Assembly: GCA_038849525.1 (NCBI GenBank)
Contig: JAWCMS010000001.1
Span: forward strand, 142,584 to 206,583
From: Candidatus Pacearchaeota archaeon
Lineage (GTDB): Archaea > Nanobdellota > Nanobdellia > Pacearchaeales > JAHJTO01
DNA length: 64,000 nt
Reading direction: 5' to 3'
Shown here: positions 6,120 to 61,857 of the stretch, one piece after another
How positions within the stretch are numbered: the first letter of the stretch is position 1
Layout of the letters: the number at the start of each line of letters is the position of its first letter
Position numbers and translations under genes: made by a program
The notes under the pieces: generated by a model
Told to the model about the DNA's origin: nothing
Database searches by the model: none
What the model saw: only the letters and a program-made list of their open reading frames with translations

Positions 6120-6845
6120 ATGAGTATATTAAAAAATCTGCTAAAAGGATTTATTAAAATCTTTTTGGTTCTTACAATAATACTTTTCATTTTGGCATCG
6201 ACAGGAGCTCATTTTACAGAAAAGGAAAATTTAAAGTATTTAATTCAAGAAATAATGGTTGAACAAATCGATAAAAACTATCTTAAAACAATAACCGATG
6301 AATTAAATAATTTATGTTATCAACATGAAAATGAGGTAATTAATAGATACGTTTATGAAATTAATACAACAATAAATATAGACTGCACTAAAATTAGTGA
6401 GGAATACGCAAAAAAGATATTCAAAGATTATGTAGTTGATAAAGAAATTGAAAATCTATATGCTCAAAAATGTACTGGATTTAAGTGTTTTGCAAATTTT
6501 TCAGCTGCTGCAAGCCAATCAGCGCATAGTTTTCTTAGAAAATTAGAAGTTGTTTTTGCAATTTTAGCATTAATTTTTGTAGTTTTGTTATTTTTATTGA
6601 CAAAAAAGGTTTCTAATAAAATGTTTGCAATTGGAATTCCTTTATTTATCTGTGGGGTTCCTTATTTCTTTATTGAAACTATAAAGAAAAAAATTTTTTT
6701 AACTATCTCTAATGCTGTTATAATAAAAATAATTATAGATGCAATTTTTGATTATGCTAGCAATTTATTTTTGGTGATATTAATAATAAGCATTATTCTC
6801 ATTGCTATTGGATTTATTATAAAAATAATTTTTAAAAAAAGCTAA
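6120..6845 (+). CDS. hypothetical membrane protein
   Basis: 241 aa with N-terminal and C-terminal hydrophobic segments. Confidence 0.45.
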   Translation: MSILKNLLKGFIKIFLVLTIILFILASTGAHFTEKENLKYLIQEIMVEQIDKNYLKTITDELNNLCYQHENEVINRYVYEINTTINIDCTKISEEYAKKIFKDYVVDKEIENLYAQKCTGFKCFANFSAAASQSAHSFLRKLEVVFAILALIFVVLLFLLTKKVSNKMFAIGIPLFICGVPYFFIETIKKKIFLTISNAVIIKIIIDAIFDYASNLFLVILIISIILIAIGFIIKIIFKKS

Positions 6846-7648
6846 AGAGAATCAAAAGGAGATTTAATTTTCTTTAACTCATCTGTTGAAACATGTGTAT
6901 ATATTTGGGTTGTATTAAGATTAGAATGACCAAGTAGTTCTTGGATGTAACGAATATCTGTTCCAGCTTCAAGAAGATGTGTAGCAAAGCTGTGTCTTAA
7001 AGTGTGAGGTGTAACTTTTTTTTGTATATTTGCTTTTTTTGTTGCTAATTTTACTATCTTTTGAATATTTCGCGTTGTTAAAGGTTTGTCTTTTGAAAAT
7101 AAGTATTGATAGTTTGGATGTTTATCTATGAATGCTTTTAGTTCTGGAATTATTTTCTCTGGTATAATAAAAATCCTATCCTTATTACCTTTTCCAGATT
7201 TTATTATTCCTGTTCGGTTTTCTAAATTCAAATCTAAAATTTTTAAATTTACCAATTCTGAAACTCTTAGACCAGTAGCATAAATAAAAGAAATTATTAA
7301 CTTCGACTTATTTGTATCTGCACTTTCTATTATTCTTTTAACTTCTTCTTTAGTTAATACCAAAGGTAGTTTTTTTTCCTTTTTTATTGGATGTATGTTA
7401 GCAAAAATTTCCTTTCCTAAAATTTTTTCATAATAAAATTTTAATGAAGCTAATGCAAGGGTGACAGTTGCTGTTGATTTTTTATCTAAAGATGCTATAA
7501 ACTGTTTTATATCATCTAAATTAACTAAATCTGCAGATTTTTTTATAAATTCAAGAAATTTTTTGTTGAAAAAAAGATAATTTTTTATTGTTTTTTCTGA
7601 TTTTCTTTGTAAACGCAATTCTGTTTCTAGTTTTTTTAGATCATCCAT
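6842..7648 (-). CDS. xerA: Tyrosine recombinase XerA/XerC-like
   Basis: C-terminal catalytic motif HTLRHSFATHLLEAGTDIRYIQELLGHSNLNTTQIYTHV (R, H-x-x-R, Y). Size of 268 aa is typical of XerA. Confidence 0.85.
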   Translation of the reverse strand: MDDLKKLETELRLQRKSEKTIKNYLFFNKKFLEFIKKSADLVNLDDIKQFIASLDKKSTATVTLALASLKFYYEKILGKEIFANIHPIKKEKKLPLVLTKEEVKRIIESADTNKSKLIISFIYATGLRVSELVNLKILDLNLENRTGIIKSGKGNKDRIFIIPEKIIPELKAFIDKHPNYQYLFSKDKPLTTRNIQKIVKLATKKANIQKKVTPHTLRHSFATHLLEAGTDIRYIQELLGHSNLNTTQIYTHVSTDELKKIKSPFDSL

Positions 7649-8582: not shown

Positions 8583-9533
8583 TTGGCGTTAGCCAAGTCG
8601 AAAAGATTAAAAATAAGCAAGACACTCTATTATAGAGGTGATTCGCCTCAGACGATTTCTGAGATCAAAATGGTATATGAAGATAAAAACAAAAATGAAA
8701 GTTTATTCCATGCTACTTTAATATATTTAAAAATAGTTTCTGCAGGAACAGCTTCTGGAAATAAAAAACTTAAAGAGTTTCTCGAAAAATACGGTTCTTT
8801 TGAAGGAATCTATAATGTGTATAAAGGTTCTATGTCTATTGAAGATTCGTTAAAAAAAATAAAAGGGCTTGAAAACATAATAAACAAACTAAACAACTTG
8901 AATTTTGATTTTAAAGTTATTACAATAAAAGATATTAATTTTCCAGAACATCTTAGAAAAATTGAAAATGCAACTCCAGTATTGTATGCAAGAGGAGATT
9001 TAAATCTATTAAATAAAAAAAGCATTGCTGTTGTCGGCTCAAGGCATATTTATCCAAATAAGGACAGACAAGTTTATGAAGAAGCTTATGATGTCATGAA
9101 AAGGCTTGTTGAAAAAAAGTATGTAATTGTTTCAGGGTTAGCTGAAGGATGTGATACTATAGGACATATACAAACAATTGAAAATGGGGGAAAAACTATT
9201 GCTGTATTAGGAACTCCTTTGGATCAGTACTATCCTTCTTCTAACAAAAATTTGCAAGAGAAGATAGCAAGAGAGCATCTTTTAATCTCACAATATCCTA
9301 TAGGAATCAGAACATTTAAATCTTATTTCACAAACAGAAACCATACAACAGTCTCTTTGGCAACAGAGGGGATTGTTGTGATAAAGGCATCTGACAATTC
9401 AGGAACAATGCATGCTGTAAAATTTTGTTCAGAACAAAAAAAACCAATTTATGTTCTTGCTAATAATTTTTCAAATAACTATAAGTGGCTTGAAATTTAT
9501 AAAAATTTTATAAAAAGAGTTGATAAAAAATGA
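8583..9533 (+). CDS. dprA: DprA/Smf-like DNA-processing protein (Rossmann/SLOG fold)
   Basis: Motifs SIAVVGSRHIYP, VIVSGLAEGCDTIGHIQTIENGGKTIAVLGTPLDQYYP, LLISQYP, YFTNRNHTT and EGIVVIKASDNSGTMHA match the DprA core: VVSGLArGID...GrTiAVLG...YP..N, FP.RNR, SGslITA. Confidence 0.7.
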   Translation: MALAKSKRLKISKTLYYRGDSPQTISEIKMVYEDKNKNESLFHATLIYLKIVSAGTASGNKKLKEFLEKYGSFEGIYNVYKGSMSIEDSLKKIKGLENIINKLNNLNFDFKVITIKDINFPEHLRKIENATPVLYARGDLNLLNKKSIAVVGSRHIYPNKDRQVYEEAYDVMKRLVEKKYVIVSGLAEGCDTIGHIQTIENGGKTIAVLGTPLDQYYPSSNKNLQEKIAREHLLISQYPIGIRTFKSYFTNRNHTTVSLATEGIVVIKASDNSGTMHAVKFCSEQKKPIYVLANNFSNNYKWLEIYKNFIKRVDKK

Positions 9534-10792
9534 AAAAATATCTTTTTGATTTAGACAACACAATTGCAGACACATCAGAAATAAAAATATATAGAAAATC
9601 GGCTGAAGGAATGGAATATTTAGCAGAAAACATTGACAAATTTAATATATACTATAATCCTAAAATAACCAATCTTATAAACAAACTTAATGAAAAAGGA
9701 AAAATCAGCATAATAACAAATGCCCCTCTTAACTATGCAAAAGCTATTCTTAAAAAAGGAGAATTTTCTGAAAGCATTCCAATTTATTCGAACATGAAAA
9801 AACCTATCCCAACAAAAATTTATTTTGAGCTTAAAAGAAAAATAAATCCTAATGAAACAATTGTAATAGGAAATTCTCCAAAAGACATAATTGCTGCTCA
9901 TGGATATATAGAAGATTTTGCAGGATATGAATGGCCAGAAACTTTTAATCTTCCATCAGCAGGAGTTATTTTTAAAAGAGAGAATGAAAAAATAAGACTC
10001 AAAAAAGCCATCAAGTTGAATAAAGCAGAACCTAATAAAATTCTCAAAAATACAGAAGATCTTGAAGAGCTTGTTGATGAATTTGAATCAGGAAAAATAA
10101 CTTATCAAAGAAGGAAATCTATAGATGAGTATTTTTTCATTTCTAAGCAAGAACTTCCTGAAAAAGATATTAAAATTGAAATATTTTATCTTGGAAATTA
10201 TTATCCGAAGGACAAGTTTCCTGATATGAACAAAAAAGATGCTTTTTCCCAACATCTTTTAAGGTTCAAAAGAGCTCAAGATTGCCCTATAGAGAATATA
10301 AATGATAGGATAATTGATAAATATTTTTTCAATGGACAGATAAGAGGAATCTATACATATTGGCATTCAATAAAATTTTTTCTTGAAAAAGCAGAAGACA
10401 GAATAGATGAGATGAATCTTAAAGGAAAAACTGAAGTGATAGCTTCTCCGAATTCATACCCTGAATACTGCTATGATACTGATGTTAATCAAGCATTTGC
10501 AAGAAAACTTAATAATGATTGCTTTAACATTTCTGAAACAAAAAGAATTGTATATAGAGTGTTTCCTAAAGAAAAACATTCGAGAGGCATTGAAAATCAT
10601 CTTAAGACAATAGGTATTGAGAAGACAGCCTTATCACATATTCAGACTCTTAATAATATAATAATATTTGATGATAATATTACTTCAGGTTCTCAGATAA
10701 AAGCAATAGCTTATCTTTTAAGACAAAAATGTAATTTTCAAGGAAATATTTATGGCTTAACATTGGGAAAAACAGTTGGATCTATGCAATAA
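9530..10792 (+). CDS. Fusion of an N-terminal HAD-superfamily hydrolase and a C-terminal PRTase-fold (ComF-like) domain
   Basis: N-terminus has FDLDNTIADT (HAD motif I DxDxT), IITNAP (motif II) and K...GNSPKDIIAAHG (motifs III/IV). C-terminus has IIIFDDNITSGSQIKAIAYLL, a type I PRTase PRPP-binding loop as in ComF/ComFC. The 4-bp overlap with dprA suggests an operon. Confidence 0.6.
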   Translation: MKKYLFDLDNTIADTSEIKIYRKSAEGMEYLAENIDKFNIYYNPKITNLINKLNEKGKISIITNAPLNYAKAILKKGEFSESIPIYSNMKKPIPTKIYFELKRKINPNETIVIGNSPKDIIAAHGYIEDFAGYEWPETFNLPSAGVIFKRENEKIRLKKAIKLNKAEPNKILKNTEDLEELVDEFESGKITYQRRKSIDEYFFISKQELPEKDIKIEIFYLGNYYPKDKFPDMNKKDAFSQHLLRFKRAQDCPIENINDRIIDKYFFNGQIRGIYTYWHSIKFFLEKAEDRIDEMNLKGKTEVIASPNSYPEYCYDTDVNQAFARKLNNDCFNISETKRIVYRVFPKEKHSRGIENHLKTIGIEKTALSHIQTLNNIIIFDDNITSGSQIKAIAYLLRQKCNFQGNIYGLTLGKTVGSMQ

Positions 10793-10831
10793 AAGAGAAA
10801 TGATTAAATACAAAACATACTTACAATCTTT

Positions 10832-11083
10832 ATGAAACTGACGAGAAAAGAATATTCCGTTCTGTATGAAATACATTCAGGAAGAAGCGATATTGAAAGA
10901 TTATCTAAGGTTTTTAGTAAAGAATATGCCTTTAAAACAGTAAAAAAGCTTGAAAAACTTGGATTAATAAAAATAGTTTCTTGGAGAGACAATCCTTTAT
11001 ATGGATTAATGCTAACAGAAAAAGGTGAAAAACTTCTTCAGAGTAAAAAGTATATGAAATGGTTTATTGAAGAAGGAGATTAG
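10832..11083 (+). CDS. small winged-HTH transcription regulator
   Basis: 83 aa with SVLYEIHSG...RLSKVF...VKKLEKLGLIKIV, a MarR/TrmB-like wHTH. Confidence 0.5.
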   Translation: MKLTRKEYSVLYEIHSGRSDIERLSKVFSKEYAFKTVKKLEKLGLIKIVSWRDNPLYGLMLTEKGEKLLQSKKYMKWFIEEGD

Positions 11084-11143
11084 CGTGTGACGGCGCGGCT
11101 CGCTTCTAAAAATACTTAAATATAAGCTCTGCATGGAAAAAAC

Positions 11144-12607
11144 ATGCCAATTTTGACGAAATCAAAATATGTTGACGGCTTGAAATGCCTGAAGTACTTG
11201 TGGCTTCAATATAATAATCCATCAGCCATTCCGGCTCCTGACGAATATGCCTTGTTTGTGATAAATGAAGGCCATAAAGTTGGAGAGTTTGCAAAAACTC
11301 TTTATCCTGATGGAATTGCTGTAAGCACAGAAAGCAATGATGAGAACATAAGAAAAACTCAGCAATTATTGAAATTGAGAAAGCCCCTTTTTGAGGCAGG
11401 AATTTCTATAGATAATTGTTATGCAAGAACAGACATTCTTTTGCCTGTTGAAAAAGATGAATGGGACATTGTTGAAGTGAAAAGTTCAAGTAGAGTGAAA
11501 GAAGATGAGCATATTCCTGATGTTGCTTTCCAGAAATATGTTTATAGCAAAGCAGGATTAAAAATAAGAAAATGCATTATAATGCATGTTGATAGCAAAT
11601 ATGAAAGAAATGGGAATATAGATGCAGAAGCCCTGTTTGTAAGAGAGGATGTAACTGAAAAAGTTGGCAAAGTAATCAAGGAAGTTCCAAAAAACATAAG
11701 GAGATTTTTTACTGTTATAAAAAGCAAAAAATGCCCTGAAATTGATATAGGAAATTATTGTGCTGATGAATTTGGAGTGCATGAAAATGATGCATTCTGG
11801 AAAAAACATCCTGACTGCAATATCCTTCAATTGTATCACTCAAAAGACAAGGAAGAATTATTCAATAAGGGAATATTGAGGATAAAAGATATTCCTTCAA
11901 GTTATAGATTAGATGCAAAGCAGCTTATACAGAAGAAATGTGATGAAAATAACAGCATTCATATTAATAAGAAGGAGATATCAAATTTTCTTTCTAATTT
12001 GCAGTATCCTCTTCATTTCCTTGATTTTGAGACTTATAATACGGCAATTCCATTGTATGACAAGCTTAAGCCATGGGAAAAAGTGGCTTTTCAGTATTCA
12101 TTACATATTGTAAAAGATGAAAATGCAAAGCCATTGCATTATTCTTTTCTTGCAAAAAACAATTCTGATCCAAGAAAAGATTTTATTGAAAGCCTTGAAA
12201 AAAAGATTATGAAAAAAGGGAGTATAGTTGTATGGAATGCGGTATTTGAAAAAAGTATTCTTAAAAGCATTGCAGAGCATATGCCAGAATATGCAGTTTC
12301 TGTAAATGAAATAATTGGAAGGATTGAAGATTTGATGATTCCTTTCAAAGATTTTTCATATTATAATCCTAAACAGAAAGGAAGCAATTCCCTAAAAACA
12401 ATATTTCCTTTGCTTACAGGAAGAAGCTATCAAGGATTAAATATCTCAGAAGGAGGAATTGCAAGTGCAAGATATTATAAAGCGGTTCATGAATCGATAA
12501 AAGAAAGCGAAAAAGAAAAAATTTTTGATGATCTTGAAAAATACTGCTCTTTGGATACAGAGGCGATGATTTTTGTTCTTGACAAGCTTAATGAGATTGC
12601 AAAGTAA
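11144..12607 (+). CDS. Dual nuclease: N-terminal RecB/Cas4-like PD-(D/E)xK domain plus C-terminal DEDD/RNase H-like exonuclease domain (DUF2779-like)
   Basis: N-terminus has KSKYVDGLKCLKYLWLQY then D(ILLP)...WDIVEVKSS, a D/E-x-K triad. C-terminus has YPLHFLDFETYNTAIP, resembling DnaQ Exo I D-x-E. Confidence 0.55.
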   Translation: MPILTKSKYVDGLKCLKYLWLQYNNPSAIPAPDEYALFVINEGHKVGEFAKTLYPDGIAVSTESNDENIRKTQQLLKLRKPLFEAGISIDNCYARTDILLPVEKDEWDIVEVKSSSRVKEDEHIPDVAFQKYVYSKAGLKIRKCIIMHVDSKYERNGNIDAEALFVREDVTEKVGKVIKEVPKNIRRFFTVIKSKKCPEIDIGNYCADEFGVHENDAFWKKHPDCNILQLYHSKDKEELFNKGILRIKDIPSSYRLDAKQLIQKKCDENNSIHINKKEISNFLSNLQYPLHFLDFETYNTAIPLYDKLKPWEKVAFQYSLHIVKDENAKPLHYSFLAKNNSDPRKDFIESLEKKIMKKGSIVVWNAVFEKSILKSIAEHMPEYAVSVNEIIGRIEDLMIPFKDFSYYNPKQKGSNSLKTIFPLLTGRSYQGLNISEGGIASARYYKAVHESIKESEKEKIFDDLEKYCSLDTEAMIFVLDKLNEIAK

Positions 12608-12970: not shown

Positions 12971-13609
12971 TTATTTAAGTTTATCAATGAATTTTTCTAT
13001 TGCTAACTTTATTCTGTAGTCTTTCTCATCTTTCAAAACAGATTTTCCTTCCAATTCAGAAAGAATTATCTCTGTAATCTTGATGTCATCATCAAGCTGC
13101 TTGTAATAAACATCCCATTTGACGCATCCCATGTCTTTGAAATCAGGGCAGTTATAAACAGAATATTCTTTTCCTGGATGAATGATGCATTTAGGATCCA
13201 TAAATTCTGATTCATCCGCATCTTTTGCATATGAACTCATATGACTACAGGCAGGACAGTATGATTTTGAATTTCTCTGCATTTTCACTTTTTTAAGCTC
13301 ATCCTCGAAAAATTCTCTGACTATTCTGCGCTTTATTCCAGGATCTGCTCCTTGTTCAACCAATGCTTCAATTCCTTCAATATTTCTTGCCAGCGCAATA
13401 TCTCCATGCTTCTTTCCATTGTATGCAATTTTATCAATATTTCTTGCAGCCATTTTATAAAATTCATCATTTGATTTCTCTATTTTTTCTTCTAGAATAG
13501 TAGGAGAATCAAGATGTATCTGACTAATAATCGACATTTTTACATTAAATGCAAGTTTCCAGTACAAAAATGCGAGCCTGCTATTTTTCGATTCCATTTT
13601 ATTCCGCAA
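12971..13609 (-). CDS. hypothetical Cys-rich (putative Zn-binding) protein
   Basis: 212 aa. C-terminal half has CPAC...C..HPG...CPDFKDMGC. Confidence 0.4.
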   Translation of the reverse strand: MRNKMESKNSRLAFLYWKLAFNVKMSIISQIHLDSPTILEEKIEKSNDEFYKMAARNIDKIAYNGKKHGDIALARNIEGIEALVEQGADPGIKRRIVREFFEDELKKVKMQRNSKSYCPACSHMSSYAKDADESEFMDPKCIIHPGKEYSVYNCPDFKDMGCVKWDVYYKQLDDDIKITEIILSELEGKSVLKDEKDYRIKLAIEKFIDKLK

Positions 13610-13674: not shown

Positions 13675-14280
13675 TTATTGTTTATATAAAAAAGCATTTT
13701 TATGTTTTTCTATAAATCCTTCAATGTTTTTTCCAGCCTTTAATTTTTCAGCATCCTGCAGAACAGCTTGAATGATGTCATCTGCAGTTTTATTGAAATA
13801 GTTCTTTTCTTTTATTCTTATTGGATCTCTTAAAAACATAAATTCTAAGCCATAAAGAACAATAGGCTTCGGCTGATTCTTCATATTATTCTTGACATCT
13901 TTCTTGAAAACTCTATAATCCTGGTTTCTTATTGTTAAATAGTCATTTTTCTCAACAAACTCTGGATTCAGCAAGAGAATGCCATATTTTCCTCTCCCGT
14001 ATCTTGAATCCTCTGGCTTTACTTCGAAATTTAAGCCTTTCATTGAGCATTTGAATGGAGTTGCATATTCCCTTCTTAAAAGATAAGCAGACTTTCCATC
14101 CTTATCTTTATGCTCAAGATTTATATTGTTTTTAAGAATATGACAAAAATCATTGATTATGTCATATTCATTTCCATAAAGAGTAGACTTCTGCTTGAAT
14201 AAATATTCTGATTTTTTGATTGTGTTTTCAACTGCTTTAATTATTTTTTTCTTATATTCTTGAACGTCCTTAGCCATCAT
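13675..14280 (-). CDS. hypothetical protein
   Basis: 201-aa ORF. Confidence 0.4.
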   Translation of the reverse strand: MMAKDVQEYKKKIIKAVENTIKKSEYLFKQKSTLYGNEYDIINDFCHILKNNINLEHKDKDGKSAYLLRREYATPFKCSMKGLNFEVKPEDSRYGRGKYGILLLNPEFVEKNDYLTIRNQDYRVFKKDVKNNMKNQPKPIVLYGLEFMFLRDPIRIKEKNYFNKTADDIIQAVLQDAEKLKAGKNIEGFIEKHKNAFLYKQ

Positions 14281-22754: not shown

Positions 22755-22895
22755 ATTCTTTTATAAGTTAATTAATTTATAAATGTTTCTATTTTATAAT
22801 GACTTTTTTATAATAAAGTAGTAAGAGCTTTAAAATTTAAATTTATGTTTAATTTGATATCTAAAATAATTTTAAAAATTCGTTTAATTTTTTAA

Positions 22896-22926
22896 GTGTC
22901 CCCTTCATTGCTTATGGAAATATAAA
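22896..22926. repeat. ORB-like box 1 (G-string plus ATGGAAATATA)
   Basis: gtgtccccttcattgcttATGGAAATATAaa. Its reverse complement, TTCCATAAGCAATGAAGGGGA, resembles the archaeal ORB dyad TTCCAGTGGAAAC...GGGG. Confidence 0.45.
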
Positions 22927-23080
22927 AAAATTTAAAAAGATTGTCAAAAATTTTATTTTCTTTTTTTATTTAATTTATAAATTTTTATATATTTTTATAT
23001 TATATATTATAAATATATTTTTCTAATATATTTTTTAAAAATAAATTATCTTATAAAATAAATAAATATTTTTAAATTTT

Positions 23081-23104
23081 GTTTCCAATGGAAATATAGG
23101 TCTG
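23081..23104. repeat. mini-ORB-like box 2 (TTCCAATGGAAA dyad)
   Basis: gTTTCCAATGGAAATATAgg contains the palindromic core TTCCA-ATGGAA, like the mini-ORB TTCCAGTGGAAA. Confidence 0.5.
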
Positions 23105-23232
23105 TATTATTATTTTTCATTTGAAATATATTTATAAAAGGAGCTTTTTTTAAAAAATAACAAAAAATGTAAAAGGAGGCAAAAGAGGCTAAGGATTTAA
23201 TAAATTTTATAATTTATTTTTAAGATAGCCTT

Positions 23233-24447
23233 TTGTTTTTCATGTCAATAAAATTAGACAAAATTTTTGATTCTTTTACTAAGGAAAGTATATTTAAAAA
23301 TAAATTTATTCTTCAATCAAATTATGTACCAGAAGCAATACAACATAGAGATAAACAAATAAAACAAGTTGCATCAATACTTGCACCTTGTCTTAGATTA
23401 GAAAGGCCTAGTAATCTTTTTATTTATGGTAAAACAGGTACTGGCAAAACAATTTCAATAACTTTTGTTAAAAATGAACTGTTGAAAAGAGCACAAGAGC
23501 AAGATATTCCGTTAACAATAGAGTATATAAATTGTAAACTAAAAAAAGTTGCGGATACAGAATATAGAATTTTAGCAGAACTTATTAAAAAACTCGGTGG
23601 AAATGTTCCATCTACAGGACTCCCTACAGATCAAGTATACCAAAAATTTATTGAAATTGTGGATTCAAAAAAACAATTATTAATTATTATACTTGATGAA
23701 ATAGATCAAGCAGTTAAGAAAATAGATGATAATTTTCTTTATAATCTTACAAGACTAAATTCAGAGCTTACTAAAGCCCAAATGTCAATTATAGGGATAA
23801 GTAATGATGTGAGATTTCTTGATTATATTGATCCAAGAATAAAAAGTAGCTTATCAGAGGAAGAACTTGTTTTTCCACCATATAATGCTTTACAATTAAA
23901 AGATATTTTAAAAGAAAGAGCAATAAAAGCATTTAAAGAAAATGTAATTGGAGAAGGAGTTATAGAAAAATGTGCTGCATATGCTGCACGTGAACATGGT
24001 GATGCAAGAAGGGCATTAGATTTATTAAGAATAGCTGGAGAGCTAGCAGAAAGAGATGGAAAAAATATTGTTTTATTAGAATATATAGACAAGGCAAATG
24101 AAAAAATAGAACGTGATAAAATTTTTGATGTTGTTGCAACACAACCAAAACAATTTCAGCTTGTTCTTATGGCTATTATAATTTCAGAAGAAAAAAAAAT
24201 GGAACAAATTTTTACTGGTGACATCTATAATATTTATCAAGCTTTATGTAATAAAACCTCTACTGAACCACTAACACAAAGAAGAATAGGGGATATTATT
24301 GCAGAATTTGATATGCTTGGGATAATAAACGCAAGAGTAGTAAGCAAAGGCAGATATGGAAGGACAAGGGAAATTAAACTTGCAATTCCATCTACCATTC
24401 TTGACAAAATAAAAGAAATGATAAAAGATTCTTTAGGTTTAAAATGA
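23233..24447 (+). CDS. cdc6: Orc1/Cdc6 replication initiator (AAA+ with C-terminal winged helix)
   Basis: Walker A GKTGTGKT, Walker B LIIILDEID, sensor regions and C-terminal wH. Confidence 0.9.
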   Translation: MFFMSIKLDKIFDSFTKESIFKNKFILQSNYVPEAIQHRDKQIKQVASILAPCLRLERPSNLFIYGKTGTGKTISITFVKNELLKRAQEQDIPLTIEYINCKLKKVADTEYRILAELIKKLGGNVPSTGLPTDQVYQKFIEIVDSKKQLLIIILDEIDQAVKKIDDNFLYNLTRLNSELTKAQMSIIGISNDVRFLDYIDPRIKSSLSEEELVFPPYNALQLKDILKERAIKAFKENVIGEGVIEKCAAYAAREHGDARRALDLLRIAGELAERDGKNIVLLEYIDKANEKIERDKIFDVVATQPKQFQLVLMAIIISEEKKMEQIFTGDIYNIYQALCNKTSTEPLTQRRIGDIIAEFDMLGIINARVVSKGRYGRTREIKLAIPSTILDKIKEMIKDSLGLK

Positions 24448-25961
24448 GTATTATTAAAGCCTTTTTACAAGAAGGAATCCTTATAGAACCATCACTTTTA
24501 GAATTTTTTAAAACAAATCAAATAAGTTATAATCTCATTGATGTTATAAAGAGTCTTAATATAAGTTTTTTATCAAAAGATGTATTATTTCAAAATAATG
24601 AAAAAATAAAATTCTTTTTAGAGAGTATTAAACATGGAAAAAATGATGAAGAAAAAGCGTTGATAGAAAAAACAATTGAGTGTTTGTCTATTTTCAAAAA
24701 AGAAATAAAAAATGAAACAAAAGAAAATAAAATTAAATTTAAAATTCTTGAATCATGGAAAATTCCAAGTAGAAAAATAAATGTTGATGATTTTGTAAAA
24801 TATTTCAAAAATAGACTTGTTATATTAAAAACTGCTCTACAAGAAAGAGCTGAACTTGTAAATTTAACTGCAATAAATAAAATATCAAATCAAAAACAAA
24901 ATAATATAAGTATTATTGGAATCGTATATGAAAAGATAATTACAAAAAATAAAAATATAATTTTAGAGATAGAAGATTTTACTGGAAGAATTTCTGTTCT
25001 TGTAAATTTTAATAAGGAAGATGTTTATAAAAAAGCTGAAAAGGTACTGCTTGATGATGTTATTGGTATAAAAGGAAGTGGAAATTCCGAACTTTTATTT
25101 GCAAACGATATCTTTTTTCCAGATGCATTTATACCAAAGAAAGAGGGTGATAAAGAAGATTTTGCCGCTTTTATTTCAGATATTCATATAGGTTCAAGTA
25201 TGTTTTTGGAGGATGAATTTTTAAGATTTATTAATTGGTTAAACTTAGAAAAAGGGAGCGATGAACAAAAAGAGATAGCTAAAAAGGTAAAATATCTTTT
25301 TATAGTAGGAGACACAGTAGATGGTGTAGGAGTTTATCCAGGTCAAGAAGATTTATTAAAAATTAAAGATGTAAAAGAACAATATATGAAATTAGCAGAG
25401 TTTTTAAATAATATAAGAAAAGATATTACAATTTTTATGATTCCTGGACAACATGATGCTGTAAGAATTGCAGAGCCACAACCTCCAATAGATGAAGATT
25501 ACGCTCCAGAACTTTATAAAATAAATAATCTTGTTTTATTAAGCAACCCTTCTATGGTAGAAGTTTGTGGAAGAAAAATTTTACTTTATCACGGTGCAAG
25601 TTTTCATAATATTATAGATGGCATTGAAGAATTAAGACTTGCAAATGCACATAACAATCCTTCTAAAGTGATTAAAACAATTTTAAACAAAAGACATTTA
25701 GCACCAACACACGCATCAACAGTATATATTCCTACTAAAGATACAGACCCGTTAGCAATAAGAGAAGTACCTGATGTTATTGCAACAGGAGAGCTACATA
25801 AAGTAGATATTGGTTTTTATAACAATATTAGAATAATAGCTTCTTCATGTTGGCAATCTCAAACACCCTTTGAAGAAAAAGTTGGCAATTTATCTGAACC
25901 ATGTAAGGTTCCTATTTTGAATTTAAAAAATAATTCAGTAAAAATAATGGATTTTTCATAA
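24444..25961 (+). CDS. polB: DNA polymerase II (PolD) small subunit DP1 (3'-5' exonuclease, calcineurin-like)
   Basis: Phosphoesterase motifs FISDIHIGS, FIVGDTVDG, IPGQHDA and LYHGASF. 4-bp overlap with cdc6. Confidence 0.85.
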   Translation: MSIIKAFLQEGILIEPSLLEFFKTNQISYNLIDVIKSLNISFLSKDVLFQNNEKIKFFLESIKHGKNDEEKALIEKTIECLSIFKKEIKNETKENKIKFKILESWKIPSRKINVDDFVKYFKNRLVILKTALQERAELVNLTAINKISNQKQNNISIIGIVYEKIITKNKNIILEIEDFTGRISVLVNFNKEDVYKKAEKVLLDDVIGIKGSGNSELLFANDIFFPDAFIPKKEGDKEDFAAFISDIHIGSSMFLEDEFLRFINWLNLEKGSDEQKEIAKKVKYLFIVGDTVDGVGVYPGQEDLLKIKDVKEQYMKLAEFLNNIRKDITIFMIPGQHDAVRIAEPQPPIDEDYAPELYKINNLVLLSNPSMVEVCGRKILLYHGASFHNIIDGIEELRLANAHNNPSKVIKTILNKRHLAPTHASTVYIPTKDTDPLAIREVPDVIATGELHKVDIGFYNNIRIIASSCWQSQTPFEEKVGNLSEPCKVPILNLKNNSVKIMDFS

Positions 25962-25968
25962 TAAAAAC

Positions 25969-28900
25969 ATGCAACAATATTTTAAAGAAATAGAGAATAA
26001 AGTAAAGGTTGCTTATTCGATAGCTGGAGAAGCAAGAGCGAAAGGCTTAGATCCAGTGTCAATAGTAGAAATACCTCTGGCTACAAGTTTGGCTGAAAGA
26101 GTTACAGGATTAATTTCAACAAAATATCCTCAAGTTAGAAATTCTGGAATAGAAAAAAGGATTAAAGAACTAGAAAAACAATATGGTTTTCTTGACTCTG
26201 CTATTTGTTTACAAATTGCAGAAGAAGTTGCTAAAGAACGTTTTTGCAAATTCCAAAATATGGAAGAAGCATTAGATGCAGGAATAAGAATTGCATTTGC
26301 TTATATAACTCTTGGCGTTGTATCATCACCATTAGAAGGATTTACTCATTTTAAAATAAAGAAAACAATAGATGGAAAAGATTATATGGCTGTTTATTAT
26401 TCTGGGCCAATAAGGTCTGCTGGTTCAACTACAGCTGCTTTTTCTCTTTTAATTATAGATCATCTAAGAGAAGTTTTTGGATTCGCAAAATATGATCCTA
26501 CTGAACAAGAAATCAAAAGAATGATTACTGAGATATATGATTATCATGAAAGAGTTGCTAATCTACAATATTTACCTACTGAACAAGAAATATATTTTAT
26601 GTTTAAGAATTTACCTATACAAGTTACAGGGGATCCATCAGAAGAAAGAGAAGTTTCAAATTACAAAGATCTGGCCAGAATTGAAACAAATAAAATTAGG
26701 AATGGACCATGTCTTGTTTTAGGGGAAGGGCTGGCACAAAAATCTTTCAAAATTTTAAAGAGATTGAATCATCTAAGAGAAAAAGGTTTTAAACTAACGG
26801 ATTGGGATTGGTTAAAAGATTTTACTGAATTACAGAAAAAATTAATTGCCGAAAAAAAAGAGAAAGCAACGGGAACTTATATACAGGATATCGTTGCTGG
26901 AAGACCTGTTTTTTCTCACCCCTCTAGATCTGGAGGATTTAGGCTTAGGTACGGAAGGGCAAGAACATCAGGATATAGTGCTATTGCTATTTCTCCTTTA
27001 ACTATGGTTCTATTGAATAATTTTATTGCTATTGGAACACAAATAAAACTAGAAAAACCAACAAAAGCTGCAGCAGTAACTTCTTGTGATACAATAGAAG
27101 GTCCTATAGTAAAATTAAAAGATGGTTCGCTTGTTAAGATTAAAGATTTAAAAGAAGCAAATGAAATAAAACCTTATGTAGAAGAAATAGTTTATTTAGG
27201 AGATATATTAATTTCTTATGGGGATTTTTTGAATAGAAATCATATTCTTCTTCCTGCAGGATATAATGAAGAGTGGTGGTATGCAGAATTATTAGAAAAA
27301 GATAAAATAGAAGCAGAAAAAATAAACCCTTTAGATATAAGTCTTGATAAAGCAATAGAATTAAGTGAAAAATATGAAATTCCTTTACATCCAAAATACA
27401 TTTTTTACTGGTCACAAATAAATTACGAATTATTTTTTGCAATGTTAAAATGGCTTGAAAAAGCAAAAATAATAAACGGAAAATTAATTCTTGATTATAC
27501 TGAAAAAGAAAAAAAAGCAAAACGCGCTCTTGAATTGCTTGGAGTAGAGCATAAAAAAGAAGGAGACAAATTTGTTGTCGATGAAATAATAACAAAAGCA
27601 TTTTTTTTGAATTTGGGTAAACGTATAGAAGAAATCAACGAACTAATAAGACAACCAGAACAAAGAGAAGGAGTTCTTGAATTTATAAATTCTTTTTCTA
27701 AATATAAAATCAAAGATAAAGCAGGGACTTTTATAGGTGCGAGGATGGGTCGACCTGAAAAAGCAAAGTTGAGAAAACTTGTTGGTTCTCCACATGTTTT
27801 GTTTCCTGTAGGCGAAGCAGGAGGAAGAATGAGGAGTGTACAAGAAGCTATGAAATCTTATGTCGAAGCTGATTTTCCTATTTATTTCTGTGATAATTGT
27901 AAACAAGAAACCATTTATTTTATTTGTGAAAAATGTAATAATAAAACAAGGAAACTATGTTACTGTCCATTATGTGAAAGAATTGTAGGTGAAAATTGCC
28001 CTCAACATGGGGGGATACAAGGAGGAAAAGTTAAAACATTTATGCAAAAAAGAATTGATCTTAGTTATTATGTAAATAGTGCTTTAAATTATTTGAATAT
28101 CCAGAAAACTGATATACCAGAATTAATAAAAGGTGTTAGGGGAACAAGTTCTGAGGAACATATACCAGAACATATAGCAAAAGGAATTCTAAGAGCTCAG
28201 TTCTCACTTAATGTAAATAAAGATGGAACAATAAGATATGACGCAAGTGAAGTTCCGATTACACATTTTAAACCAAAAGAAATAGATACTGAAATAAAAA
28301 AATTAAAAGAGCTAGGATATACAAAAGATATTTTTGGAAAAGAACTAGTTGATAAAGAACAAATTTTATGTTTGAAGCCACAAGATATTATTCTCCCTTC
28401 ATGTCCTGAAACTCTTGATGAAAAAGCAGATGATGTTTTTGTAAATATTGCAAAATTTATTGATAATTTGCTTGTGAGATTTTACAAACAAAAACCATTT
28501 TATAATGTTAAATCAAGAGATGATTTAGTAGGACATTTAGTTGTTGGAATTGCTCCACATAACTGTGCGGGGGTAGTTGGAAGAATAATAGGGTTTAGTA
28601 AGACGCAAACTTTTTTGGCAAGCCCATATATGCATGCTGCAATGCGTAGAGATTGCGATGGCGATGAAGCTGCGATAATGTTACTTTTAGATTTACTGCT
28701 TAATTTTTCAAAAAAATTTTTACCTGCACATAGAGGAGGGACACAAGATGCACCTTTAGTTTTAAATGCAAGAATAAGAGCTTCTGAAGTTGATGATATG
28801 ATTCTTGATATGGATATTACAAAAAATTTACCATTAGAACTTTACAAAGCAGCTGAAGAGTTTAAATCTCCAAGTAGTATTAAGATTGAAAACATTGGTA

Positions 28901-29412
28901 CTAGGCTTGGAGAAGAGGAAAAAGATGCAAATGTTTTCGAGGATTTATGGTTTACTCATGATACTTTAGATATCAATAATGGAACTATTTGTTCTTCTTA
29001 TAAAACACTTGAAACAATGCAAGACAAAGTAAAAGCGCAGATGGAACTTGCAGAAAAAATTCGGGCTGTAGATACAACAGATGTTGCAAGGCTTGTTATC
29101 GAAAGACATTTTATTCGTGATATTAGGGGAAATTTGAGAAAATTTTCAGGACAGCAATTTCGCTGTGTTGATTGTAATACGAAATACAGAAGGCCACCTT
29201 TGACTGGCAAATGTTTAAATTGTAATGGAAGAATAATATTCACAATTGCTGAAGGTTCTATTGTTAAGTATCTTGAGCCTGCTCTTCAACTAGCTGAAAA
29301 ATATAATATCTCACCTTATCTTAAACAAAGTTTAGAATTAACAAAGTCTTACATCGAGAGTATTTTCGGTAAAGAATTAGAAAAACAGCAAGACTTAGAA
29401 AGGTGGTTTTAA
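25969..29412 (+). CDS. polC: DNA polymerase II (PolD) large catalytic subunit DP2
   Basis: 1147 aa. Zn fingers CDNCKQET...CEKCNNKT...CPLCE and C-terminal CVDCNTKY...CLNCNG. No intein-sized insertion. Confidence 0.85.
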   Translation: MQQYFKEIENKVKVAYSIAGEARAKGLDPVSIVEIPLATSLAERVTGLISTKYPQVRNSGIEKRIKELEKQYGFLDSAICLQIAEEVAKERFCKFQNMEEALDAGIRIAFAYITLGVVSSPLEGFTHFKIKKTIDGKDYMAVYYSGPIRSAGSTTAAFSLLIIDHLREVFGFAKYDPTEQEIKRMITEIYDYHERVANLQYLPTEQEIYFMFKNLPIQVTGDPSEEREVSNYKDLARIETNKIRNGPCLVLGEGLAQKSFKILKRLNHLREKGFKLTDWDWLKDFTELQKKLIAEKKEKATGTYIQDIVAGRPVFSHPSRSGGFRLRYGRARTSGYSAIAISPLTMVLLNNFIAIGTQIKLEKPTKAAAVTSCDTIEGPIVKLKDGSLVKIKDLKEANEIKPYVEEIVYLGDILISYGDFLNRNHILLPAGYNEEWWYAELLEKDKIEAEKINPLDISLDKAIELSEKYEIPLHPKYIFYWSQINYELFFAMLKWLEKAKIINGKLILDYTEKEKKAKRALELLGVEHKKEGDKFVVDEIITKAFFLNLGKRIEEINELIRQPEQREGVLEFINSFSKYKIKDKAGTFIGARMGRPEKAKLRKLVGSPHVLFPVGEAGGRMRSVQEAMKSYVEADFPIYFCDNCKQETIYFICEKCNNKTRKLCYCPLCERIVGENCPQHGGIQGGKVKTFMQKRIDLSYYVNSALNYLNIQKTDIPELIKGVRGTSSEEHIPEHIAKGILRAQFSLNVNKDGTIRYDASEVPITHFKPKEIDTEIKKLKELGYTKDIFGKELVDKEQILCLKPQDIILPSCPETLDEKADDVFVNIAKFIDNLLVRFYKQKPFYNVKSRDDLVGHLVVGIAPHNCAGVVGRIIGFSKTQTFLASPYMHAAMRRDCDGDEAAIMLLLDLLLNFSKKFLPAHRGGTQDAPLVLNARIRASEVDDMILDMDITKNLPLELYKAAEEFKSPSSIKIENIGTRLGEEEKDANVFEDLWFTHDTLDINNGTICSSYKTLETMQDKVKAQMELAEKIRAVDTTDVARLVIERHFIRDIRGNLRKFSGQQFRCVDCNTKYRRPPLTGKCLNCNGRIIFTIAEGSIVKYLEPALQLAEKYNISPYLKQSLELTKSYIESIFGKELEKQQDLERWF

Positions 29413-47946: not shown

Positions 47947-50241
47947 ATGATTTTCAGACCAGAAACAAAGTTATATTCTTATGAAGTAGTCAGAGAAGCA
48001 GGGCAGGATGTAATGTATATAAATTATATTGGACATCCAAGTGTACCTTCTATCGCTGATTCTGCAATTGTGATGGCAAGGACAATTGATAATCTAATAG
48101 AATCTCCAAGGGTTAGTAAAATTGTTTTTGTACAACAGAGAAATTATGTTTATGATCTTAATCAAACTTCATTACTCATAGAAATCGCACAGCTTTATAC
48201 TTTTCTCATCGAACAAGAAAAAATTCTTTCTCCAAAGAAATTAATTCCTTTTGGAGAGCAGCAATTTTTGCAGCAAAGGTATAATGCTATGAGGTGGCTG
48301 ATTTTAACTTTGTTAAAGCAAGATCCAATAGGTTGTTATATTGAAGCTAAGAGGTTATTAAGAGAAGAAAAAATAAATGCAGAAAGAATTGCTGCAGAGT
48401 ATGTTCATTCTGAAAATGCTTACATAAGATTACTAAGTAAAATTGTTGAAATGCTTGAAGGAACTAGGTTAATTAGAGAGGCTAGAGATATTGATATTGA
48501 AGCACATAAAATAGGAGACAGAGAAATTTATAGAAAATTTTTTAGACCAGATGTTGTTCCAAATTTCACTTTTACGAGATTAATGGCGAGTTTACCAATC
48601 GGAGCAGATATTTTAGATGAATATAAAGTAGAATCTGGATATGATAAGAGTTTAGTAACTATCTTAAAAATACCTGGAACTGGAAGACCTATTTACCATT
48701 TACAAAGTCCTGAATTTATGTTAGAAGAAAATTTTTACAGCTTAATCGATTTAGCAAGAAGTGTTTTAATTGAGCACAGGCCAAAAGCAGAAGAATTTAT
48801 CGATCCACAAAGAACAAGACAGGTTTTTTTTAATATATCTCGAGATTTATTAAGAGAATTAGCTGAAAGTAGAAAAATTTCTTTGTCTTACAGGCAACTT
48901 AACAAACTTGCAACAATTCTTGTTAGACATACAATCGGATTTGGCTTAATTGAAGTGCTTTTACAAGATGAAAGGTTACAAGATATTGTTGTAAATGCAC
49001 CTGTTTCACAAACGCCAATATTTGTAAGGCATCAGGATTTTGATGAATGTGTTACTAACATTATTCCTGCATATGAAGATGCAGAAGCGTGGGCTGCTCG
49101 TTTTAGATTAATTTCAGGAAGGCCTTTAGACGAAGCAAATCCTGTTCTTGATACTGATTTGGAGATAGAAAATGTAAGGGCAAGAGTAGCAATTATACAA
49201 CAACCATTGTCTCCGTATGGACTTGCTTATGCTTTAAGAAGACATAGAGAAAAGCCATGGACCTTACCTTTGTTCATAAAAAATAGGATGATAAACCCTA
49301 TAACTGCAGGATTATTAAGTTTTTTAATTGATGGTTCAAGAACAATTCTTTTTGCAGGGACAAGAAGTGCAGGAAAAACATCTTTGCTTGCCGCAGCAAT
49401 GCTTGAAATAATACCTAAATATAGAATAATAGTTATAGAAGATACATTAGAGATGCCCGTAAATGCATTTAAAAAACTGGGCTATGACATATTGAGAATG
49501 AAAGTTCGTTCTGCGTTGCTTAGAGAGAGCACTGAAATGGAAGCTGCTGACGGAATAAGAACGAGTTTGAGATTAGGAGATTCTTCTTTAATAGTTGGAG
49601 AAGTAAGAAGTGATGAAGCGAAAGCATTATATGAGGCAATGAGGATTGGAGCGTTAGCTAATGTTGTTGCAGGAACGATACATGGCGGCTCGCCATATGC
49701 TGTTTTTGATAGGGTTGTTAATGATTTAGGAGTGCCAATAACTTCATTTAAAGCAACCGATATCGTATTAGTTGCAAATCCGATAAAGAGTCCAGATGGG
49801 ATACATAGCTGGAGAAGAGTTACACAATTTGCAGAAATAAGGAAGCATTGGCAGAGAGATCCTTTGGAAGAAAAAGGTTTTGTTGACTTGTTAACTTATG
49901 ATGTAAAAAAAGATTCTTTAGAGCCAAGTACAGATTTAATAAACGGCGAGTCAGAAGTGATCAAAACAGTTGCAGGACAAGTAAAAGGATGGGCTGGAGA
50001 TTGGGATGCTGTATGGGATAATATTTTGCTGAGAGCAAATATAAAACAAGAATTAGTTGAAAAAGCAAAAATTACAGGTATAAAAGATCTACTTGAAGCT
50101 CCTTTTGTATTGAAGAGCAATAATATGTTTCATGAATTTTCAGATAAAATTACTAAGGAGATAGGCATTCCTGAAGGTAAAAGAGTATTTAGCGAATGGA
50201 AAGACTGGTTAAATGAAGAAATAAGAAAAAGAACTTTATAA
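47947..50241 (+). CDS. Type II/IV secretion-family ATPase (FlaI/PilB/VirB11-like) with long N-terminal extension
   Basis: Walker A GTRSAGKTS, Asp box RIIVIEDTLE, Walker B LIVGEVRSDEA, His box GTIHGGSP. 764 aa. Confidence 0.75.
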   Translation: MIFRPETKLYSYEVVREAGQDVMYINYIGHPSVPSIADSAIVMARTIDNLIESPRVSKIVFVQQRNYVYDLNQTSLLIEIAQLYTFLIEQEKILSPKKLIPFGEQQFLQQRYNAMRWLILTLLKQDPIGCYIEAKRLLREEKINAERIAAEYVHSENAYIRLLSKIVEMLEGTRLIREARDIDIEAHKIGDREIYRKFFRPDVVPNFTFTRLMASLPIGADILDEYKVESGYDKSLVTILKIPGTGRPIYHLQSPEFMLEENFYSLIDLARSVLIEHRPKAEEFIDPQRTRQVFFNISRDLLRELAESRKISLSYRQLNKLATILVRHTIGFGLIEVLLQDERLQDIVVNAPVSQTPIFVRHQDFDECVTNIIPAYEDAEAWAARFRLISGRPLDEANPVLDTDLEIENVRARVAIIQQPLSPYGLAYALRRHREKPWTLPLFIKNRMINPITAGLLSFLIDGSRTILFAGTRSAGKTSLLAAAMLEIIPKYRIIVIEDTLEMPVNAFKKLGYDILRMKVRSALLRESTEMEAADGIRTSLRLGDSSLIVGEVRSDEAKALYEAMRIGALANVVAGTIHGGSPYAVFDRVVNDLGVPITSFKATDIVLVANPIKSPDGIHSWRRVTQFAEIRKHWQRDPLEEKGFVDLLTYDVKKDSLEPSTDLINGESEVIKTVAGQVKGWAGDWDAVWDNILLRANIKQELVEKAKITGIKDLLEAPFVLKSNNMFHEFSDKITKEIGIPEGKRVFSEWKDWLNEEIRKRTL

Positions 50242-50252
50242 TCTAAATAAAA

Positions 50253-54299: not shown

Positions 54300-55274
54300 T
54301 TAGCATGTAGCAGTTGAAGGAATATGATTTGGCAGCCCTATTCTTGCCCAATCAAAATTACTCGGATCTATTTTTCTATCTCTCATGCCTTGAAGAGTTT
54401 CATAATGGCCAATGATATGTTTATCATCATATTTTATATCAGGCCATCTTTTTATTATATCTTTAATTAAATTATTTAATGATGAGTACTGTGCATCTGT
54501 ATATCCAAAATTTTTGCATCCTGTGCTAACAAGTTCTATACCTATTGAAAAATCATTGTATGGGTATCCAGCATGGATAGCTTTTTGAGTTTCATCAACA
54601 AGATAATATATTTTGCCATCTCTATCTATTATATAATGAACAGAATTTCCAGAATTTTTGAGAAAATTATAAGCCTCTATAAAATTTGTTCCAGCGGTAT
54701 GATGCAAGACGATAGTATTAATTTTTGTATCTTTATCTCTTGGTTTTGATTGAAGGGTATAAGATGTATTGACTTTTATTTCTGGTATAGTTGTTCTTTC
54801 ATATTCTTTTAGTGTTCCTTGTTCTGAAATAACACTTAAAATAGAATATTCTGTAGGGTTATTTTTAATATAAAGTTCCATTATCTTAATTTGCATGGAA
54901 ATGCTTTTACCATCTTTTTTTAATGGTTTTTCTATATTATTACAGTATTTTTCTTCTGATTTAACTGGACAGTCTTTATCTTTGCAGATACATATACAAT
55001 TTTGGCTAGCACATATTATGGGGCTACTTTCTATTTTATCATAAGAAACAAGCCAGTATCCTTGAGGAGCATAAACAATAAAAGAATCGATATTTTCATT
55101 TTTTATATCTCTTAAAAAATTTATTAGATTTGTTAAAGTCTCTTTTGCTTGTTGTTCCTCTTTACTTTTTAAAAAATTACCATAGATGTTAGTGCATGCG
55201 CCTATTACTGCTATTATAAGAAAAACTGTAAGAAGCAGATACATTACTTCTTTTAATAAAGACATTTCGGGCAT
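54300..55274 (-). CDS. Secreted N-acetylmuramoyl-L-alanine amidase (Amidase_2/PGRP-type) with Cys-rich linker
   Basis: C-terminal domain IVLHHTAGTNF...SVHYIIDRDGKIYYLVD...AIHAG...NDFSIGIELV...HYE...RKIDPSNFDW matches the H-H/T-A-G...H-A-G...IGIE pattern of T7-lysozyme/AmiD-type amidases. N-terminal signal/TM plus C-x-C-x-C-x-C region. Confidence 0.7.
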   Translation of the reverse strand: MPEMSLLKEVMYLLLTVFLIIAVIGACTNIYGNFLKSKEEQQAKETLTNLINFLRDIKNENIDSFIVYAPQGYWLVSYDKIESSPIICASQNCICICKDKDCPVKSEEKYCNNIEKPLKKDGKSISMQIKIMELYIKNNPTEYSILSVISEQGTLKEYERTTIPEIKVNTSYTLQSKPRDKDTKINTIVLHHTAGTNFIEAYNFLKNSGNSVHYIIDRDGKIYYLVDETQKAIHAGYPYNDFSIGIELVSTGCKNFGYTDAQYSSLNNLIKDIIKRWPDIKYDDKHIIGHYETLQGMRDRKIDPSNFDWARIGLPNHIPSTATC

Positions 55275-61796: not shown

Positions 61797-61857
61797 ACCT
61801 TTTAATTATTTAAAATATATTATTTATTAGTATAAACCTTATAAACTGCTTTTTATT

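Follow-up and report, generated by a model that had tools for sequence, protein, structure and literature searches.

We examined a run of four genes in a 64-kb window taken from a 400,615-bp contig of a Candidatus Pacearchaeota (DPANN) metagenome-assembled genome (MAG). The window is the whole stretch of DNA that was analysed, and all positions are given in its numbering. It encodes Orc1/Cdc6, both PolD subunits, the Lhr helicase, RadA, an RPA-like protein, and a 5S rRNA, and these markers confirm that it is part of an archaeal chromosome. The first two genes of the run, which encode a DprA-like protein (gene 1) and a protein with a HAD-superfamily domain and a phosphoribosyltransferase (PRTase) domain (gene 2), are the subject of this report; genes 3 and 4 follow on the same strand. 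See Table 1 for the features of the locus. An initial annotation had described four co-oriented open reading frames (ORFs) in which the dprA stop overlaps the next start, and this is borne out, as genes 1 and 2 share an ATGA at 9530–9533. Spacers of 39 nt and 60 nt separate gene 2 from gene 3 and gene 3 from gene 4, respectively. The run had also been placed next to xerA. An integrase gene does lie nearby (6842–7648, minus strand), but a DUF4013 membrane-protein gene intervenes before gene 1.

Table 1. Coordinates of the four genes and of the domains of gene 2.
Feature	Position	Strand	Length and remarks
Gene 1 (shosA-like, DprA-family SLOG/Rossmann; predicted antitoxin/sensor)	8670..9533	+	287 aa (NCBI)
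Gene 2 (shosT-like, HAD + PRTase; predicted toxin)	9530..10792	+	420 aa
Gene 2, HAD-superfamily domain	9530..10090	+	residues ~1–187; counterpart of the ShosT N-terminal pyrophosphatase domain
Gene 2, PRTase domain	10091..10792	+	residues ~188–420; phosphoribosyl pyrophosphate (PRPP) loop IIIFDDNITSGSQIKA encoded at 10655–10702
Gene 3 (small winged helix-turn-helix (wHTH) protein)	10832..11083	+	83 aa; outside the conserved pair
Gene 4 (Cas4-like PD-(D/E)xK + DUF2779 fusion)	11144..12607	+	487 aa; outside the conserved pair

Gene 1 has two candidate start codons. An in-frame TTG upstream, at 8583, would give 316 aa; the NCBI annotation uses the 287-aa form, so the ATG at 8670 is the likely start, and alignments of homologues to gene 1 begin near that point. 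Residues of gene 1 are counted here from the TTG. The DprA core motifs reported by the initial annotation are present in the sequence as GSRHIYP (152–158), SGLAEGCDTIGH (184–195), GKTIAVLG (203–210), RNH (252–254), and SGTMH (273–277), with a ~78-aa N-terminal region ahead of the Rossmann domain. Profile searches recovered the DprA family (Pfam DNA_processg_A, 4e-51), and matches in the PDB include DprA (3uqz, 2.6e-30) and ShosA (8zva/9vzo, 3e-15). Against the PADLOC models, gene 1 matched ShosA (PDLC03961) with 215 bits and an E value of 2.9e-64.

Under the names ShosTA, “DprA + PRTase,” and DprA-PPRT, a type IV toxin-antitoxin (TA) and abortive-infection system has been described (Rousset 2022; Millman 2022; Pu 2025; Yang 2026). 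A pair of DprA and HAD/PRTase genes from the P2 hotspot of Escherichia coli APEC O1 was validated against T7 and lambda (Rousset 2022), and its gene order is the same as here, with the DprA-like gene adjoining and preceding the HAD/PRTase gene. The toxin of APEC O1, ShosT, is a 424-aa protein divided into a HAD-like pyrophosphatase (PPase; residues 1–164) and a PRTase (residues 165–424), and its PRPP-loop double mutant D331A/D332A is non-toxic. The antitoxin, ShosA, is a DprA-like dimer with SAM and Rossmann domains and binds to single-stranded DNA (ssDNA) as well as RecA, not ShosT, and it contacts RecA via K200/R206. Structures are available under PDB entries 8zva–8zvd, 9vzo, and 9w2p.

Like APEC O1 ShosA, the product of gene 1 is a putative antitoxin in the ~290–330-aa range with a DprA Rossmann core and kept ssDNA-binding arginines; R139, R234, and R261 of ShosA are R154, R252, and K280 in gene 1. 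Unlike APEC O1 ShosTA, the window pair has an archaeal host with RadA instead of RecA and lacks a prophage context, and gene 2 shares only ~13–14% identity with APEC O1 ShosT in structural alignments. Around the locus, PHROGs matched the integrase only. Between 5 and 23 kb, the sole direct repeats are AT-rich and imperfect, and we claim no mobile island.

Gene 2 carries a DLDNT motif at residues 7–11 and, as the initial annotation had stated, a PRPP loop (FDDNITSG, 380–387). The HAD assignment was recovered by Pfam over the first ~125 residues (Hydrolase, 9e-8; HAD_2, 3e-7), and the PADLOC ShosT model (PDLC03962) matched residues 254–416 with 38.9 bits (2.1e-10). Of 16 gene 2 homologues, 15 match this model. 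In the alignment of these 16 homologues, D7, D9, T11, T63, K91, and D119 of the HAD domain are invariant, as are D381-D382 of the PRPP loop. By their position in the canonical loop, D381/D382 would correspond to ShosT D331/D332. Within residues 113–145, gene 2 and its two closest homologues (P0002 and P0003) have in common a GNSPxD motif, versus GDSxxD, in which Asn takes the place of the first Asp of HAD motif IV. An insertion of 13 residues, EDFAGYEWPETFN, also sets these three proteins apart from the other 13 homologues, which lack it.

The family alignment was used to build an AlphaFold 2 (AF2) model of gene 2 (pLDDT 92.3, pTM 0.90). HAD phosphatases dominate the matches of gene 2 in both PDB profile and fold searches. 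Searching the full-length model against the PDB with Foldseek placed ShosT (8zvc/8zvd) at ranks 3 and 5, with 456–469 aligned columns spanning both domains; among the top matches, no other PDB entry combines HAD and PRTase domains. The global TM-score to ShosT is 0.28–0.30, which indicates that the relative orientation of the domains in the model differs from that in ShosT. Because of this low value, the PRTase domain was also modelled alone (pLDDT 78.5). For the PRTase-only model, the first match was ShosT 8zvc (E 5.7e-4, TMq 0.45), with Helicobacter pylori ComF (7p0h, 2.9e-3) behind it in third place, followed by OPRT/APRT. The PRTase fold that had been called from the sequence was recovered through AlphaFold and Foldseek, and we take ShosT to be the best PDB fold counterpart of gene 2, at full length as well as for the PRTase domain.

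A counterpart of the pair is found in bacteria. Gene 1 is 43–50% identical to ~281-aa proteins of Vibrio, Aeromonas, Alteromonas, Yersinia, and E. coli that are named “DprA” and are too short for canonical DprA. The gene for the E. coli protein (P0200, 43% identical) comes right downstream of tail genes of a P2-like prophage and is followed, on the same strand, by that for a 439-aa protein without a Pfam match. Gene 2 aligns with this 439-aa protein over its full length by BLASTP (26% identity, E 3e-24), and an hhalign comparison of the gene 2 family with the same protein gave a probability of 99.95% (E 3e-38). The PADLOC scores of the E. coli pair (ShosA, 189 bits; ShosT, 38.8 bits) are near-identical to those of the window pair. 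Set beside the APEC O1 pair, the P0200 pair points to at least two ShosTA subtypes, one comprising APEC O1 and the crystal structures and the other matched by PDLC03961/PDLC03962, and by sequence homology the window pair is assigned to the second. In bacteria, this subtype has the same gene order, and both proteins are homologous over their full length; its toxins are ~436–461 aa in bacteria versus ~360–420 aa in archaea. The direct sequence link between gene 2 and APEC O1 ShosT failed; therefore, the assignment was made from the fold and architecture of gene 2 and by way of the E. coli subtype as an intermediate. We found no direct experimental test of the PDLC03961/PDLC03962 subtype in the literature.

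The initial annotation had instead proposed a ComF-like partner for DprA, which would make natural transformation the function of the locus: gene 1 would be a true DprA that loads the recombinase on incoming ssDNA, and gene 2 an analogue of ComF/ComFC, working with a pilus and a nuclease in the uptake and processing of DNA. The pair does share with the DprA-ComFC competence proteins a DprA Rossmann/SLOG core (GSR, SGLAxGxD, RN), complete in gene 1, and a type I PRTase fold in the partner. The best PDB score of gene 1 is against Streptococcus pneumoniae DprA, ComF is the third-best fold match of the PRTase domain, and both RadA and a T2SSE-type pilus ATPase are encoded in the window. However, gene 1 falls under the dprA equivalog cutoffs (TIGR00732, 141.2 vs 191.15 bits; NF008007, 109.6 vs 495), and the comF model TIGR00201 scores 16.6 against a cutoff of 233.55 bits, its match to gene 2 being limited to 36 residues at the PRPP loop. 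As read from the sequence, gene 2 has no zinc-finger CxxC pairs, and its N-terminus is a HAD domain. No ComEC or ComEA match was found by Pfam among the ~38 window proteins scanned, some large ORFs being without any Pfam match. The archaeal type IV pilus-like locus mentioned in the initial annotation is the segment at 47947–52376, which encodes the T2SSE-type ATPase (764 aa) and then a 707-aa protein without a Pfam match. It is indeed in the window, but ~35 kb from the pair, and where Pfam tables were available for a locus, the flanking genes showed no pilus or secretion ATPase domain. Furthermore, the pair is sporadic and mobile-like in its spread, with variable contexts that include the E. 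coli prophage tail genes, unlike a conserved competence regulon, and the same HAD+PRTase architecture is that of a proven toxin. We therefore regard natural transformation as highly improbable. The HAD domain had been presented as replacing the zinc finger of ComF; since HAD+PRTase is the published, canonical ShosT architecture, no such substitution is called for.

Next, we compared 16 independent loci that encode gene 2 homologues, nearly all of them from DPANN archaea. The DprA-like gene directly adjoins the HAD-PRTase gene in 15 of the 16 loci, lying upstream and co-directional in 13, often with an overlap, and divergent in the other two. Apart from the pair itself, the loci differ in their surroundings, where genes for IS66 transposases, an integrase accompanied by Lar and an S24 peptidase, ParE, and nucleotidyltransferases occur. 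All nine reference-genome loci come from archaeal MAGs or single-amplified genomes (seven Nano-, Woese-, or Pacearchaeota and two “uncultured Methanosarcinales”); these nine species representatives were found with one search pattern only. A profile search of 1.84 billion representatives returned 107 proteins at E ≤ 1e-30. Most have the archaeal size (360–420 aa), and ~15 have the bacterial size (436–461 aa), one of these being from Aeromonas caviae. Viral contigs gave partial, HAD-only matches and no full-length relatives of gene 2. The sporadic occurrence, strict pairing, and variable flanks together indicate a self-contained accessory module.

Of the two proteins, the DprA-like one is consistently the better conserved: in the co-directional loci (L002–L021), identity to the window proteins is 42–63% for the DprA-like protein versus 29–37% for the HAD-PRTase. 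The values for L004, from a Nanoarchaeota single-cell genome (JBHPFA010000001.1), are 63% and 35%. A gene with an LpxC Pfam match runs off the end of this locus (13177–13179); the locus also has archaeal RNA polymerase genes, beside which LpxC is an odd bacterial-type gene.

We interpret genes 1 and 2 as a ShosTA-family (DprA-PPRT) type IV TA and abortive-infection module on a Pacearchaeota chromosome, with a probability of roughly 0.78. Our analysis supports this through homology, the two-domain architecture of gene 2, the kept catalytic and ssDNA-binding residues, and the pairing of the genes in variable contexts. By analogy with the E. coli system, we infer that the pair may include a toxin, may act against viruses, and may use RadA in place of RecA. 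The initial annotation held that this was not a described archaeal system. In published surveys, ShosTA already ranks in the top eight archaeal defence systems by frequency; it is commoner in archaea than in bacteria, shows enrichment in Asgard archaea, and occurs in ~16% of archaeal virus-host genomes, so the locus is a divergent member of a known system. The fallback offered at the time, a SLOG/PRTase-type nucleotide-centric conflict system, was essentially right.

Several observations weigh against this assignment. S. pneumoniae DprA outscores crystallised ShosA as a match for gene 1 (109 vs 59 bits), and the RecA-contacting K200/R206 of ShosA are S219/Q225 in gene 1. The Gln at the R206-equivalent position is invariant across the PDLC03961/2 subtype, in bacteria and archaea alike, and the K200-equivalent residue is Lys in five of seven bacterial and one of nine archaeal antitoxins; we take this pattern as a weak hint and not as a result. 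The host encodes RadA (61858–62853), not RecA. For gene 2, the PADLOC ShosT match is modest and confined to the PRTase part, the first Asp of HAD motif IV is Asn (GNSPKD), the global TM-score is low, and ComF follows ShosT closely in the PRTase-only search, with modest separation. No phmmer match was obtained between gene 2 and the crystallised APEC O1 ShosT, the only ShosT with a biochemical characterisation, and the 16-member family profile reached this protein only at E = 0.09, via the HAD region only. One apparently intact homologue of gene 2 (locus L001, 5944–7972, 46% identity) has no DprA-like gene within 6 kb and would be either an orphan toxin or a toxin with a different partner. Its flanks encode a 155-aa membrane protein and a ~201-aa HExxH protein with a weak SprT-like match. 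Finally, neither this clade nor any archaeal ShosTA has a toxicity or defence assay that we could find.

If the pair works as its homologue ShosTA does in E. coli, the PRTase domain of the ShosT-like protein would bind and consume PRPP, and the fused HAD pyrophosphatase would clear the pyrophosphate (PPi) product and so drive the reaction forward. The resulting perturbation of purine and nucleotide metabolism would cause replication stress and DNA damage. The ShosA-like protein would not bind the toxin; it would bind ssDNA and bring in the recombinase to repair the damage. Upon infection, viral host shut-off or a flood of viral ssDNA intermediates may cause the antitoxin function to fail, and the infected cell would be arrested or killed. 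An RPA-like OB-fold protein (60840–61796) adjoins RadA (Rad51 family, 3e-89) within 60840–62853 of the window, and the two are likely the recombination partners of the DprA-like protein in this host.

The same genes could serve nucleotide salvage or housekeeping in a metabolically reduced DPANN symbiont. The PRTase would then build nucleotides on scavenged bases, nucleotidase or PPase activity would fall to the HAD domain, and scavenged ssDNA would be handled by the DprA-like protein. All catalytic motifs are intact, as salvage would have it, most clusters of the ShosT subtype are ~400 aa like the archaeal members, and the reference-genome loci are archaeal throughout. The lack of full-length copies on viral contigs and of an obvious mobile-element boundary at the locus also fits salvage, and the acceptor substrate of ShosT is not known even in E. 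coli. However, nine species representatives from one search pattern and ~107 clusters out of 1.84 billion make a sporadic distribution. There is no synteny beyond the pair, the flanks hold insertion sequences, integrase, and TA genes, and the bacterial proteins homologous over the full length fall into a class with an abortive-infection system that has been validated, which leaves salvage unlikely. A related proposal is that, in RecA-less and metabolically reduced DPANN archaea, this clade is a scavenging, not a suicide, module, in which the DprA-like protein would pass ssDNA, either acquired or from the host, to RadA and the HAD-PRTase would recycle bases to nucleotides. The ~400-aa form makes up most clusters of the ShosT subtype and is the only size among named archaeal members, so it is a possible ancestor of the prophage-borne toxin and may be non-toxic. 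We consider this proposal, too, improbable.

The ShosTA-type module that we favour could also be a plain addiction or stabilisation TA module without an antiviral role in this host, or a relative of PsyrTA/RqlHI. ShosTA was originally described solely as a TA pair, and no assay with archaeal viruses exists for the clade. PsyrTA/RqlHI and the retron PRTase effectors likewise combine a DprA-like antitoxin with PRTase-type toxin domains in abortive infection, and gene 1 does match PsyrA (92 bits, 1e-26). Model scores to these systems are far weaker than to ShosA and ShosT; the PsyrA match is far under the ShosA match, and only one of the 16 gene 2 family members touches a PsyrT or retron type III-A PRTase model. 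On these scores, membership in PsyrTA was rejected. Phage defence by bacterial ShosTA has been shown repeatedly, and we judge a TA role devoid of antiviral function to have little probability.

Genes 3 and 4 had been counted by the initial annotation as part of a four-gene DNA-uptake/processing module. Gene 3 gave weak wHTH matches only (Pfam MarR_2, 0.011; PADLOC Csa3 C-terminal HTH, 3.8e-6). A GC-rich GCGTGTGACGGCGCGGCTCGC at 11070–11110 spans the gene 3 stop, in a genome of ~28% GC; the hairpin at this stop (−20.7 kcal/mol, z = −2.2) is a candidate for a transcript boundary or for a structured element of small size. For gene 4, the earlier call of a Cas4/RecB-like nuclease fused to a DnaQ-like exonuclease holds. 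Pfam matches are DUF2779 (3.2e-41) and, at threshold, Cas_Cas4 (1e-4; 22.9 vs 22.7 bits), with PD-(D/E)xK motifs at D97 and E111-V-K113 and DEDD-type motifs DFET (294–297), NAVFE (365–369), and YCSLD (467–471). No match to gene 4 was found in the PDB by sequence. DUF2779 has been placed within a 3'-5' exonuclease clade (Majorek et al. 2014), and the Cas4-like + DUF2779 architecture is already described (Majorek 2014; mSphere 2026 paper). Gene 4 is an ordinary member of family F.17 of Majorek 2014, which includes MMSYN1_0389 of JCVI-syn3.0 and whose function is uncharacterised. The gene 4 family has >4,000 homologues, 45–50% identical, in DPANN archaea and many bacteria, and gene 4 is an independent gene of this very large family.

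A four-gene system, in which the wHTH protein and the Cas4-like/DUF2779 nuclease work with the DprA/PRTase pair, draws on the co-orientation and short spacers of the genes and on the occurrence of DUF2779 homologues among defence genes in other DPANN genomes. The comparison of gene neighbourhoods upheld the pair and not the four-gene order, as homologues of gene 3 or gene 4 occur within 4–6 kb in none of the 16 loci. Homologues of gene 3 were absent within 4–6 kb in the 15 loci with DNA, and also beside three gene 4 homologues. In GCA_042572295.1, the pair and a DUF2779 gene are on one contig but ~50 kb apart (L004 vs L010). The DUF2779 family is also far larger than the ~100 HAD-PRTase clusters, and the hairpin over the gene 3 stop weakly suggests a transcript boundary. 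A conserved four-gene system was therefore rejected, which leaves room only for a strain-specific functional interaction, and we hold a system of four genes to be very unlikely. Genes 3 and 4 are independent neighbours of the pair, forming with it at most a small defence-type neighbourhood.

DUF2779 genes at L010 (5001–6488) and L011 (5001–6497) are both beside GmrSD, and L011 additionally has Eco57I, a DNA methylase, and an Alw26I-type restriction endonuclease. The DUF2779 gene at L012 (5001–6518) has a SNF2 helicase, an N6/N4 methyltransferase, and ResIII nearby. Together with the window, where gene 4 is beside the ShosTA-type pair, DUF2779 genes are found next to defence genes in four of four DPANN loci, which suggests a defence-island gene and makes a defence-island association of the Cas4-like/DUF2779 gene plausible. 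Downstream of gene 4, the neighbours at 12971–13609 and 13675–14280 had no Pfam, PADLOC, or PHROG match.

Elsewhere in the window, Orc1/Cdc6 (23233–24447) is followed directly by PolD DP1 and DP2 (24444–29412), and two 33-nt AT-rich direct repeats are located upstream of Orc1/Cdc6, at 22768 and 22966. The region 22768–29412 is likely a replication-origin region. An N-acetylmuramoyl-L-alanine amidase is encoded at 54300–55274 on the minus strand (Amidase_2, 6e-29), a peptidoglycan hydrolase in a murein-free organism.

An archaeal DprA gene beside a PRTase gene should be read as ShosTA-type immunity and not as evidence of natural competence. The NCBI product names for proteins of the gene 1 and gene 2 types, “DNA-processing protein DprA” and “HAD hydrolase-like protein,” invite the competence misreading. 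The published antitoxin mechanism needs contact between ShosA and RecA, yet the family is common in archaea, which bear RadA, and the contact residues are not kept here. The archaeal pair would be a good case for asking whether ShosA does act through the recombinase, here RadA.

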